This document shows, piece after piece, positions 38,513-64,000 of a stretch of 64,000 nt of DNA. Numbering within the stretch: the first letter of the stretch is position 1; each line of letters opens with the position of its first letter. The notes under the pieces are model-generated. The model saw only the letters and a list, made by a program, of their open reading frames with translations. It did no database searches and was not told the DNA's origin. A program made the position numbers and the translations under genes. The stretch is from an uncultured bacterium (GTDB lineage: Bacteria; Oederibacteriota; PGYV01; CAWJRG01): the NCBI GenBank assembly GCA_963845185.1, contig CAWJRG010000005.1, positions 512,001 through 576,000 of the forward strand. Direction: 5' to 3'.

Positions 38513-40039
38513 TTATTTTTTCTCGTTTATCAGTCTTCTTATCTCTCTTTTTATTACCTTGCCCGTGCCTGTTTTCGGCAATTCCGGCCAGAACTCAAAC
38601 CTGTGCGGCACCTTGAAATTCGCCAGGTGCGGCCTGCAAAACATTTTTAACTCTATCTCCGTGGCAATCATGCCGTCCCTTAGCTTGACGACACACACCG
38701 GCACTTCCCCGTGTACTTCGTCTTTTTTCCCTACCACAGCCGCGTCCTCAATTGCCGGGTGTCTGTACAAAATATCCTCGACTTCCCTGGGATACAGGTT
38801 CATGCCGTTGACAAGGATTAAATCCTTTTTTCTGTCGAGTATATAAAGATAGCCTTGTTCGTCAATCTTTCCTATATCGCCGGTCAGGAGCCACCCGTCA
38901 TTCATCACTTCTTTTGTTTCTTCAGGCCTGTCGTAATAACCTTTCATGACATTTGGCCCGCTTACTGCTATCTCACCTGCCTCATTTGTTTTCAAATCTT
39001 TGCCATCCTCATCAACTATTTTTATTTTTACACCTGGAATTGGCGGGCCCACCGAACCTATTTTTCTTACGCCTTCAAGGGGGTTTACAGAAACCACGGG
39101 AGACGCTTCGGAAAGACCGTAACCTTCCAGAAGTGGTATTCTGAATTTCTCCTCAAAATTTTTCAAAACTTCAGCTGAGAGTGGTGCGGCGCCTGATACG
39201 CATACCCTTATAGGGTTAAACCAGAGCAGTAGTTTTGGTATTCTTTTACCTGATAACACGTTGTATACCGGAGGTATAGCTATAAACACAGTAATCCTTT
39301 TAAACATAATTGCCTTTATTATCTTCCCGAAAGGTTTTACCGACTTGAGGATTACCACCGTGCAGAACATATATAGGGGTATGAGAATACACACTGTAAA
39401 AGCAAACGAGTGGAACATCGGCAGAAACAGGATAAACCTGTCCTTTTCAACGACTTCTATTCTTGTTATTGATGAATCAGCATTGGATATCAGATTTTTG
39501 TGTGTTAGCATGGCGCCTTTAGGATGCCCTGTCGTGCCTGAAGTGTAAATGATTACTGCGGTTTCGTTTTCATCCATATCAGCAGCCGGTTCAATTGTAC
39601 CCAGCTTCATTATATCTTTATATTGAATATATTGCTGTCCGTCCATCCTGTCGGTTGCTATTATATTTTCAAGGCTTGGCGTCGAGTTTTTCTTAAAATC
39701 CTTCATTACTTCCGAGCAATCCGACGAGGTTATTAATATCTTGGCTTTTGCGTCGTTCAAAATATAGACTATTTCTTCAAGGCTTAAAAAATTATTCAGA
39801 GGAATTACTATTGCGCCTGCCCTTATGGCCGCAAAATAGCAAATCACAAATTCTATGCTGTTGCATAAAAAAAGTGCTATTTTGTCTCCCTTTTTTATGC
39901 CAAGCTTCGTAAATCCCGAGCTTAAGCGCTCCATATCTTCCTTAAACTTTTTAAATGTCACTTTTTCTTTTTCAAAAATTAAAAATGCCTTGTTCGGTCG
40001 TTTTTCGCTTGCCCTGTTTACAGCGTCAATTAAAGTCAT
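38513..40039 (-). CDS. fadD: Long-chain fatty acid-CoA ligase
   Basis: YTSGTTGHPKG, EGYGLSE, TGDIG, GKV. Confidence 0.88.
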   Translation of the reverse strand: MTLIDAVNRASEKRPNKAFLIFEKEKVTFKKFKEDMERLSSGFTKLGIKKGDKIALFLCNSIEFVICYFAAIRAGAIVIPLNNFLSLEEIVYILNDAKAKILITSSDCSEVMKDFKKNSTPSLENIIATDRMDGQQYIQYKDIMKLGTIEPAADMDENETAVIIYTSGTTGHPKGAMLTHKNLISNADSSITRIEVVEKDRFILFLPMFHSFAFTVCILIPLYMFCTVVILKSVKPFGKIIKAIMFKRITVFIAIPPVYNVLSGKRIPKLLLWFNPIRVCVSGAAPLSAEVLKNFEEKFRIPLLEGYGLSEASPVVSVNPLEGVRKIGSVGPPIPGVKIKIVDEDGKDLKTNEAGEIAVSGPNVMKGYYDRPEETKEVMNDGWLLTGDIGKIDEQGYLYILDRKKDLILVNGMNLYPREVEDILYRHPAIEDAAVVGKKDEVHGEVPVCVVKLRDGMIATEIELKMFCRPHLANFKVPHRFEFWPELPKTGTGKVIKREIRRLINEKK

Positions 40040-40053
40040 GAACTTCCTCCAAT

Positions 40054-40215
40054 GATATCGTTTGTTTTGTCAAGCTGGATAGCGCAGACAAAACATTACG
40101 ATATCTTGCACCCATTCCAGTCCGGGGCTTTAGCCAGTTAAATAATCCGGTGGATTATTTGACGGGTAGTTTCTCTAAAGTCATTTAATATAAAAACTGC
40201 CCAGACAAGTGGTGC
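40054..40215 (-). ncRNA. Leader motif A copy 1 (upstream of fadD), element B inserted in hairpin 1
   Basis: GCACCACTTGTC..GGACTGGAATGGGTGC AA GATATCGT AA TGTTTTGTC..GACAAAACA A ACGATATC, then GGAGG. Confidence 0.7.
40135..40204. mobile_element. Element B copy 1 (double hairpin, flanked by CAG repeats)
   Basis: Near-identical to 62642-62710. Confidence 0.7.
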
Positions 40216-40243
40216 CATGAAATTGTATTAATAAATGCTATTT

Positions 40244-40272
40244 ATTATCAGATAAAATAATCACGTTGTCAA
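40244..40272 (-). promoter_or_regulatory. sigma70-type promoter ahead of motif A/fadD
   Basis: TTGACA-N17-GATAAT. Confidence 0.65.
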
Positions 40273-54508: not shown

Positions 54509-54605
54509 GCACCACTTGTCCCTCGCAAGCTCGGGACTTGAGCGGGTACAAGATTCCGTAAGATTTTATCTTCGCTGTTGACGCTTGATAAAATCAACGG
54601 AATCT
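54509..54605 (+). ncRNA. Leader motif A copy 2 (upstream of glpK)
   Basis: GCACCACTTGTCCC..GGGACTTGAGCGGGTAC AA GATTCCGT AA GATTTTATC..GATAAAATC A ACGGAATC, then GGAGG. Confidence 0.75.
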
Positions 54606-59310: not shown

Positions 59311-59409
59311 GTACCACTTGTCCAAACCTACAGTCTGGACTTGAGCGGGTACAAGATAGCGTAATGTTTTGTCAGAGCCTGTTGACGTCTCGACAAAACA
59401 AACGCTATC
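59311..59409 (+). ncRNA. Leader motif A copy 3 (upstream of response regulator)
   Basis: GTACCACTTGTCCA..TGGACTTGAGCGGGTAC AA GATAGCGT AA TGTTTTGTC..GACAAAACA A ACGCTATC, then AGGAGG. Confidence 0.75.
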
Positions 59410-61845: not shown

Positions 61846-62595
61846 TTACTTCTTGGCCTTTCCCTGGTTTGCCACTGCTTCCATTGCCTTTTTGACTTCT
61901 TCAGGGTCACCGAGATAATAATTTTTTATTGGCTTTAAATTATTGTCAAGCTCGTAGACAAGCGGCATTCCAGTGGGTATGTTCAGGTGGACTATGTCCT
62001 GGTCAGAAATGTTGTCGAGGTATTTCACAAGAGCCCTTAATGAATTGCCATGGGCAGCAATCAGCACCCTTTTCCCCTTTTTAATTGTCGGCGCTATTTC
62101 TTTTTTCCAGAAAGGAAGAACCCTTGCCACAGTGTCTTTTAAACATTCCGTCAGAGGAACTTCGCTGGACTCTAATTCCTTGTACCTCGGGTCTTTTGCC
62201 GGGTTCCTCGGGTCGTCAGGCTCCAGCTTTGGCGGCGGCGTATCATAGCTTCTCCGCCATATCAAAACCTGCTCGTCTCCGTATTTCGCGGCTGTCTCTG
62301 CCTTGTTTAATCCCTGCAAAGCGCCGTAATGCCTTTCATTCAGCCTCCAGTTCCTTATCACGGGTATCCACATCAGGTCCATGCCGTCGAGCGTGAACCA
62401 CAGGGTCCTTATAGCCCTTTTTAAAACCGATGTGTAAGCAATGTCAAAAATAAAACCCGCGTCCTTTAAATAGTTCGGCGCCTTCTTTGCCTCTTCAATG
62501 CCTTTTTCCGACAGGTCGACATCTGTCCATCCTGTAAACCTATTTTCCTTGTTCCATGTGCTTTCTCCGTGCCTTAACAGTACGAGTTTATACAT
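61846..62595 (-). CDS. gpmA: 2,3-BPG-dependent phosphoglycerate mutase
   Basis: [29 protein letters not shown]. Confidence 0.97.
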
Positions 62596-62610
62596 TTTTT
62601 AACCTCCTTA

Positions 62611-62770
62611 GAGTCCGTTGATTTTGCCGAGCGTCAACAGGCAGTCAAATAGTCCTGTGGATTATTTGACGGGTAGTTTCCATAAGTTATCTAATATAAA
62701 AACTACCCAGCAAAATCTTACGGAGTCTTATACCCGCTCAAGTCCCGAACTTGTGAGGGACAAGCGGTAC
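62611..62770 (-). ncRNA. Leader motif A copy 4 (upstream of gpmA), element B inserted in hairpin 2
   Basis: GTACCGCTTGTCCC..GGGACTTGAGCGGGTAT AA GACTCCGT AA GATTTTGC..GCAAAATC A ACGGACTC, then AAGGAGG. Confidence 0.75.
62642..62710. mobile_element. Element B copy 2
   Basis: Near-identical to 40135-40204; CAG at both ends. Confidence 0.7.
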
Positions 62771-62777
62771 TAGTACT

Positions 62778-62829
62778 AAAAGAAAAGCCGCGCAATGAAA
62801 AATTAAATTTTCACAACGCGGCTTCCTTT
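62778..62829 (-). terminator. Intrinsic terminator after eno
   Basis: AAGCCGCG...CGCGGCTT stem followed by TTCTTTT on the minus strand. Confidence 0.75.
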
Positions 62830-62831
62830 AT

Positions 62832-64000
<1,169 letters not shown>

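Follow-up and report, generated by a model that had tools for sequence, protein, structure and literature searches.

The window analysed here, the whole 64,000-nucleotide stretch of DNA, corresponds to C5:512001-576000 of genome G000 (3.50 Mb in 11 contigs, 99.38% complete; C1 and C5-C11 are contig labels of this genome). It holds two copies of a short double-hairpin unit, element B, each embedded in a copy of motif A, a ~100-nt two-hairpin leader repeat that abuts Shine-Dalgarno (SD) sites and that in gene sense runs from a 5' hairpin through a longer hairpin directly into GGAGG and a start codon (Table 1). Copy 1 lies inside the loop of the SD-proximal hairpin in the leader of a histidine-phosphatase/GpmA-like gene, its displayed plus strand being antisense to the gene, and copy 2 lies at the apex of the 5' hairpin in the leader of an AMP-binding (acyl-CoA-synthetase-like, 'fadD') gene. 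Both genes are to the left of their B units on the minus strand, so both units stand in 5' leaders and in antisense. The original prediction had placed two such units at 62642-62710 and 40135-40204, in different hairpins of one host motif, and both statements are borne out: the units are present as placed, have in common an exact 21-mer (GGATTATTTGACGGGTAGTTT; two matches against 0 expected from window shuffles), and, whichever strand is folded as single-stranded DNA, each gives a pair of adjacent hairpins (z -3.6 to -6.8). The loop of hairpin 2 in copy 1 is A+T-rich and ~20 nt long. Two further copies of motif A in the window are without B.

A sigma-70-like promoter, identified by consensus match only, lies immediately upstream of A in the sense of the AMP-binding gene, so that A plus B would form the 5' end of the transcript. 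At the GpmA-like gene, a GCCGCG...CGCGGC hairpin followed by TTTTCTTTT was found by eye between the enolase gene and motif A (62786-62826, minus strand); the scanning rule missed this terminator-like hairpin, whose loop is too long for the rule. It leaves no promoter space between itself and motif A. Rfam gave no match in the window at the gathering score, and only chance-level matches at E up to 10 on 62560-62840.

Table 1. Coordinates of element B, its host leaders and related features. Positions without a contig label are window positions.
Feature	Position	Strand	Remarks
Element B copy 1	62643-62708	+	unit AGTC...CTACCC; covariance-model score 93.8 bits
B copy 1, hairpin 1	62644-62670	+	12-bp stem 62644-62655 / 62659-62670, loop 3 nt
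B copy 1, hairpin 2	62671-62708	+	GGGTAGTTT (62671-62679) pairs with AAACTACCC (62700-62708)
Motif A of GpmA-like gene, interrupted by B	62608-62771	-	two-hairpin leader
SD of GpmA-like gene	62603-62607		CCTCC on + strand
Start codon of GpmA-like gene	62593-62595		gene on -
Histidine-phosphatase/GpmA-like gene	61846-62595	-	left of B copy 1
Element B copy 2	40136-40202	+	covariance-model score 79.4 bits
B copy 2, hairpin 1	40137-40163	+	
B copy 2, hairpin 2	40164-40202	+	
Motif A of AMP-binding gene, interrupted by B	40051-40220	-	
SD of AMP-binding gene	40046-40050		gene on -
Start codon of AMP-binding gene	40037-40039		gene on -
AMP-binding enzyme gene	38513-40039	-	left of B copy 2
Sigma-70-like promoter	40244-40272	-	TTGACA-17-GATAAT, 11 of 12; consensus match only
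Motif A copy without B	54510-54604	+ (gene sense)	then GGAGG, ATG
Motif A copy without B	59311-59409	+	then AGGAGG, ATG; two-hairpin fold
B' copies	C10:218619-218687, C9:888652-888722, C9:910865-910935, C6:121811-121879		
B' copies, further	C10:442996-443067, C9:145673-145744, C10:492903-492974, C10:356190-356261		
Third-family copies	C10:190923-190986, C5:752909-752972, C9:329551-329614, C9:622825-622884, C10:314611-314674		
CbiM-like gene copies	C5:499870-500261, C8:43679-44070, C6:146414-146805, C1:333917-334307		

Element B is a multi-copy unit with precise ends

Iterated nhmmer searches of the genome returned 66 matches, 46 of them full-length copies of B and the remainder palindromic self-hits or partial/variant copies; a covariance model built from 19 B copies recovered the same 46 together with related families (78 matches, including reverse-strand self-hits). 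Full-length copies measure 64-72 nt, about 66, read AGTYAAAT...CTACCC, and are on median 79% identical to one another (maximum 97%). All 46 lie in leaders or intergenic repeats, which makes B a short, imperfect, high-copy and extragenic palindrome. When all copies are aligned with six flanking bases, conservation runs sharply from AG through CCC in every context, confirming B as a discrete multi-copy unit.

Hairpin 1 combines a 12-bp stem with a 3-nt loop into a 27-bp perfect palindrome. Among the 19 sequences, three of its 12 pairs change on both sides (AGTCC/GGACT to AATCC/GGATT and GTC.../...GAC to GTT.../...AAC, or the reverse) while 100% of cells remain paired; none of 500 shuffles attained its covariation score (0.122, against 0.083). 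Hairpin 2 (GGGTAGTTT/AAACTACCC) is conserved without double changes and has a GTAG/CTAC word at its base. The two hairpins are unrelated to each other in sequence, and B has no terminal inverted repeats (TIR), AGTYAAAT and CTACCC not being inverted copies.

Two families related to B, B' and B'', occur in the same genome. The sister family B' combines the hairpin 1 of B with another hairpin 2, GGGTAGAAG...CTTTTCTACCC; its hosts are palindromic repeats of the CCCCTTG... type, and five of its eight copies are enclosed by 11-18 flank pairs. The third related family has a hairpin 1 variant, GTTGAATATTCC...GGAATATTCAAC, followed by a GTTGAGA...TCTCAAC hairpin, and one of its copies adjoins an IS110 insertion.

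B sits in the loops of other hairpin repeats, mostly motif A

Motif A is itself abundant: a profile of its 5'-hairpin half has 180 matches in the genome, and A covers ~0.6% of it. Its lower stems form several covarying subfamilies, all of them represented among the 121 full-length A copies without a nearby B. A tandem array at C9:916618-917177 consists of six head-to-tail copies with a 100-nt period. The second host of B is a dispersed repeat, GTCATTGCGAG...CGAAGCGACGAAGCAATC (ending ...GCAATC), which has 33 pattern matches, most without B; three copies have B in the middle. This repeat, GTCATTGCGAG(G/A)AGCGAAGCGACGAAGCAATC..., is often paired with an inverted partner (e.g., C5:269108, C9:197376, and C11:124935).

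Altogether, 41 of the 46 B copies lie in or against A, and three more in another hairpin repeat. By site class, assigned by eye from the flanks and the nearest empty A copies (n = 46), 20 occupy the loop of the SD-proximal hairpin just before the 3' arm on the B strand, nine the 5' hairpin between its inner hairpin (...CCGAG) and 3' arm, and five the 5'-hairpin apex; four lie directly next to the SD with the 5' arm replaced, three are chimeras in which the left of the SD-proximal-loop site is fused to the right of a 5'-hairpin site (C9:855574, C9:930728, and C5:444966), three are in the middle of the GTCATTGCGAG...CGAAGCGACGAAGCAATC repeat, and two are in other contexts. Since B thus occurs at at least four positions within A and also in other palindromic repeats, it must have entered more than once independently, as had been proposed from the two window copies. 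The same proposal left open whether B targets structured leaders or is tolerated in them; its concentration in a repeat that makes up so little of the genome is far above what tolerance alone would predict.

At least five flank-to-flank pairs enclose 26 of the 46 B copies, against 44 of 300 random segments (30-nt flanks). In predicted leader folds, the host stems are kept and B forms a two-hairpin branch in the loop. At the SD site, the host hairpin has its 5' arm destroyed by B in all four copies. The orientation relative to A is the same in all 39 copies that have an A profile match within 130 nt (39/39, opposite 0; seven are without a match).

Pair counts on the two strands give a mixed picture of which one may fold, and they are not independent because the copies are related by descent. 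Across 54 copies, hairpin 1 on the plus strand (antisense to the mRNA) shows 625 Watson-Crick pairs, 15 G.U pairs, and eight mismatches, against two G.U pairs and 18 mismatches in mRNA sense, which would favor folding of the antisense strand. Hairpin 2 shows no asymmetry at positions 1-9 (23 G.U on the plus strand against ~19 on the other strand, from the C.A/A.C cells); in mRNA sense only, it gains two U.G pairs, the first position in 52 of 54 copies, which would favor the mRNA sense. In 44 of the 46 copies, the plus strand of B falls on the C-rich strand. Replication-strand and orientation biases of B may be secondary to gene orientation, because the orientation of A itself follows the chromosome arms. 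The GC skew (about +/-0.1) flips sign at C9 ~750 kb and C10 ~780 kb, and the orientations of A and B switch along with it; these two places are probably the replication origin and terminus.

Junctions argue against a general CTG target duplication

The original prediction described CTG/CAG at both ends of the unit and a CTG target duplication as its boundary. The flanks are real in both window copies (CAG...CAG on the plus strand, CTG in gene sense), but genome-wide CAG stands at both ends in only 12 of 46 copies, these two included (left end 23/46, right end 12/46), and a classical target-site duplication (TSD) is absent from 45 of the 46 full-length copies. The duplication therefore does not hold as a defining boundary. 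As the unit itself reads AGTYAAAT...CTACCC, two parts of the CAG words, 'AG' and the final 'C', are B sequence. It had further been argued that removing B plus one CTG restores the host hairpin. This carries little weight, because B occupies a loop and its presence makes no difference to the pairing of the host stems; at the fadD copy, removal of B leaves an apex ~2 nt shorter than in empty copies.

Compared with its closest empty copies, B usually replaces 2-7 host loop bases and is not cleanly added. No conserved word precedes or follows B in all site classes, and a few host classes dominate the flanks. Two flank variants, GTCATTATGGC-B and GTCGAAGGC-B, are found only beside B, yet in A copies with different stems. 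The GTCATTGCGAG repeat shares a CGAG-B-GAAGCG-like junction with A copies of the 5'-hairpin class, and these shared junctions, together with the grouping on the B tree (below), fit recombination.

No mobilising enzyme is recognised in the genome

A cognate HUH/RAYT enzyme or an insertion sequence (IS) transposase bounded by the ends of B had been suggested, and neither came to light in this 99.38%-complete genome. Searches with PF01797 (Y1 transposase, HUH/RAYT) and PF01385 (TnpB) gave no match there; in a control search, PF01797 matched 6 of 14 genomes. No open reading frame (ORF) is bounded by B ends, and no hairpin-1/hairpin-2 pair is split by 120-6000 nt, so the genome holds no candidate autonomous element. 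IS110-family transposases (PF01548) have seven matches, and the ends of the element, aligned from four identical copies, are unrelated to those of B. Three tyrosine recombinases are encoded. An integron attC reading was set aside: hairpin 1, as GTTAAAT...ATTTAAC, has the reverse order of the attC core sites, and there is no cassette array.

The four identical IS110-family elements (355-aa transposase; C1:323041, C5:335702, C9:330368, and C10:445859) are each inserted beside GGGAGAGG within a CCCTCTCCC...GGGAGAGG palindrome, which gives the genome another example of a hairpin repeat being targeted.

Relatives and the B tree

B was found in none of 40 order- and phylum-level relatives by BLAST, and in none of 23 other genomes of the order by covariance model. 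A metagenome scan yielded eight contigs with nine full B copies and one cut copy in the same contexts, their flanking genes 78-92% identical to those of genome G000. Between these contigs and genome G000, B shows filled, empty, and shifted states at orthologous leaders. The leader at C1:39816 is filled in both genomes (contig L032, ~90% identical). The A copy at C10:633227 is empty, and its counterpart in L030 has two B copies, one that takes the place of the 5' arm and loop at the SD site and one in the 5'-hairpin apex. B occupies different positions in the orthologous leaders of L033 and C11:157282. L027, L029, and L034 have A plus B next to the SD at sites where genome G000 is without A.

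Several other candidates were set aside. An 18-base B pattern gave 12 single matches in public species genomes of unrelated phyla, at or below chance by estimate, and four single matches of an A 20-mer were likewise taken as chance. Joints that skip B in four DNA runs of short contigs (68-77 nt skipped, with 4-13 other letters in between) were considered as an empty allele of the gpmA-like site; their sides are short, and they most likely stem from paralogous empty A copies. The gene that A plus B precedes in L031, a multi-copy one, was considered as a transposase; by its translation it is CbiM-like and no transposase. This CbiM-like membrane-protein gene has at least four copies near contig ends of genome G000 (Table 1), and it is its L031 homologue that has the A plus B leader.

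Within genome G000, none of the 43 inner branches of the B tree is well supported, and the tree therefore gives no sequence of events. The B copies from the GTCATTGCGAG repeat form one group (SH-aLRT 94) beside a 5'-hairpin copy, in a cluster rich in the 5'-hairpin class. Site labels change at least 18 times on the tree, against 24.1 with shuffled labels (0/200 shuffles reach 18; the minimum possible is 6), and by this measure B subtypes partly track site class. B identity and host-stem identity show next to no correlation (r = 0.14 for 19 of the 20 SD-proximal-loop copies, C10:633357 being left out as it is without a left arm); copies of B that are 94% alike were found in A stems merely 68-70% alike.

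Interpretation

Sharp ends in at least six contexts, several positions within A, strict polarity, and an excess in loops point, as far as sequence comparison reaches, to B as a discrete mobile unit. The reading that we favor, tentatively and at somewhat less than an even chance, is that B is a mini-element in the style of REPs and PATEs, non-autonomous and strand-specific, with a preference for hairpin loops, and that it also spread via A and recombination. As such it would be a small non-coding mobile element with two unrelated hairpins and precise ends, without TIR or target duplication, that either inserts into the unpaired apical segments of larger hairpin repeats or persists only there, in every case with one strand polarity relative to its host hairpin, and with the portable two-hairpin leader A as its main host. 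Single-strand mobilisation, loop targeting, and any past enzyme are what we infer here. Since the enzyme is not encoded in the genome, the present copies are probably either fossils or mobilised in trans by an unrecognised factor. Once the first entries had occurred, passive growth would have added to the copy number, because A plus B comes and goes as one unit and A copies recombine. The missing enzyme, the replaced host bases, the shared junctions, the chimeras, and this unit-wise gain and loss give hitch-hiking and recombination a share in the spread, and the two explain part of it, possibly most. A bolder version, which we consider unlikely, joins B, B', and B'' as a 'hyper-parasitic' double-hairpin unit that invades apical loops on one replication strand, is moved by an unrecognised enzyme other than HUH, TnpB, or IS110 or by transposase-free replication/repair, and remodels the leader system of ~180 genes.

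The strongest challenge to the mini-element reading is that B has no mobility of its own, and that a few illegitimate, microhomology-mediated entries were followed by hitch-hiking on a mobile A and by gene conversion or unequal recombination. Much fits this account: there is no transposase, TSD, or TIR, host bases are replaced at the junctions, the GTCATTATGGC-B and GTCGAAGGC-B variants are common to A copies of different stems, CGAG-B-GAAGCG junctions occur in both the GTCATTGCGAG repeat and the 5'-hairpin class with B copies that group on the tree, three A copies are chimeras with the left of one site and the right of another, orthologous loci either have or lack A plus B as a whole, and homology would naturally give a fixed orientation. 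Illegitimate recombination, however, should carry along variable flank, and B keeps the same precise ends across six unrelated contexts or more. It also takes up four positions or more within A and occurs in two or more other host repeats, and B identity hardly follows host-stem identity (r = 0.14). On balance, we regard immobility as somewhat unlikely. That B is instead an ancestral part of A, deleted from most copies, would accord with the short, variable loops that empty A copies have at B positions; we find it scarcely credible, and it is largely refuted by the occurrence of B at four different positions of A and in other repeats, to which come the two B copies in a single A of the L030 relative and the 121 full-length empty copies across all stem subfamilies.

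A selected role in the leader is a further alternative, whether B served as a protein-binding, stability, or translation-tuning arm of the 5' UTR RNA, as a DNA operator, or as a source of promoter parts. B does lie inside 5' UTRs, downstream of a promoter-like site, in one orientation (39/39 copies) and with host stems intact in predicted folds; hairpin 2 is extended by two U.G pairs in mRNA sense, and the 27-bp perfect palindrome of hairpin 1 would suit an operator. The gene-sense end of B supplies a TTGACT (a weak -35), and some copies have TTGACG-N16-18-TATCAT-like boxes on the other strand. Such boxes are not conserved, however: the TTGACT takes part in a single weak promoter-like match (9 of 12), which we rejected as a promoter in B, and the window copies are without a box on the plus strand by the scanning rule. 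B also resides in non-leader repeats, the G.U asymmetry of hairpin 1 favors the non-mRNA strand, and Rfam has no match. A leader-RNA function is possible but not indicated, because only ~41 of ~180 A matches carry B, the positions vary among four, and the four SD-site copies destroy the host 5' arm; we rate a selected module of any of these forms as very unlikely.

Comparison with known systems

We read B as a variant of the REP/PATE/MITE kind, nested in the loops of another repeat. GTAG/CTAC words such as the one at the base of hairpin 2 mark REPs. REP, BIME, and REPIN sequences, which are linked to RAYT Y1 HUH enzymes, are short, extragenic, high-copy palindromes with hairpin recognition (PMC3333891, PMC3116915), and to that extent B resembles them, as it does in lacking TIR and TSD and in forming mosaics with other motifs. 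Unlike these systems, the genome of B is without a RAYT or Y1 gene, B consists of two unrelated hairpins and not of an inverted doublet of one REP as in a REPIN, and it is nested in another repeat's loops, not placed between convergent genes as a REP is. With IS200/IS605 elements and PATEs, B has in common end hairpins that differ from each other, the lack of TIR and TSD, strand-specific behavior, and a replication-strand bias (44/46 copies, confounded with gene orientation). It differs from IS200/IS605 in that the genome has neither TnpA nor TnpB and in that its hairpins are at the very ends, guide-sequence spacing not being apparent. It may also differ in its target, as no tetra- or pentanucleotide next to the left end is common to the site classes, although a few host classes dominate the flanks. 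From a classical MITE it is set apart by the missing TIR, a TSD in 1/46 copies at most, and the lack of a parent IS with the same ends.

Palindromic repeats as landing sites have precedents. Five IS families, IS3 and IS110 among them, have members that target REP sequences, and IS1397 and ISKpn1 (IS3 family) and IS621, ISPa11, and ISPpu9 (IS110 family) are examples that target REP hairpins (PMC1525189). B likewise picks another palindromic repeat; unlike those elements, which are full insertion sequences with transposase genes, it is a 66-nt non-coding unit with ends unlike those of the resident IS110. Composite repeats are known as well: ERIC/IRU sequences with ~70-bp internal insertions, the modular BOX of Streptococcus pneumoniae, and the BIME mosaics. 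Like A, ERIC and BOX are co-transcribed, structured intergenic repeats with short forms and with long forms that hold a ~70-bp module; the insert in A differs in being a separate family with precise ends, several positions, and other hosts. ERIC is mentioned in a table and in the text of a further paper (PMC3184786). The open-access literature searched yielded no non-coding 66-nt element with precise ends and without TSD or TIR that is nested in another repeat's loops, and no paper on nested REP or hairpin-loop insertion; nor does the Goldbacteria genome paper discuss repeats, palindromes, hairpins, transposons, or leaders.

B in A is a clear case of a small bacterial repeat lodged within a second one and, if the loop preference is real, would be a natural system for the recognition of hairpin or cruciform DNA as an insertion target. 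Roughly 40 genes have B between their promoter and ribosome-binding site, and it is associated with leader deletions and chimeras, which bears on how portable 5' leaders diversify. In annotation, the long forms of A would be missed by a single RNA model.
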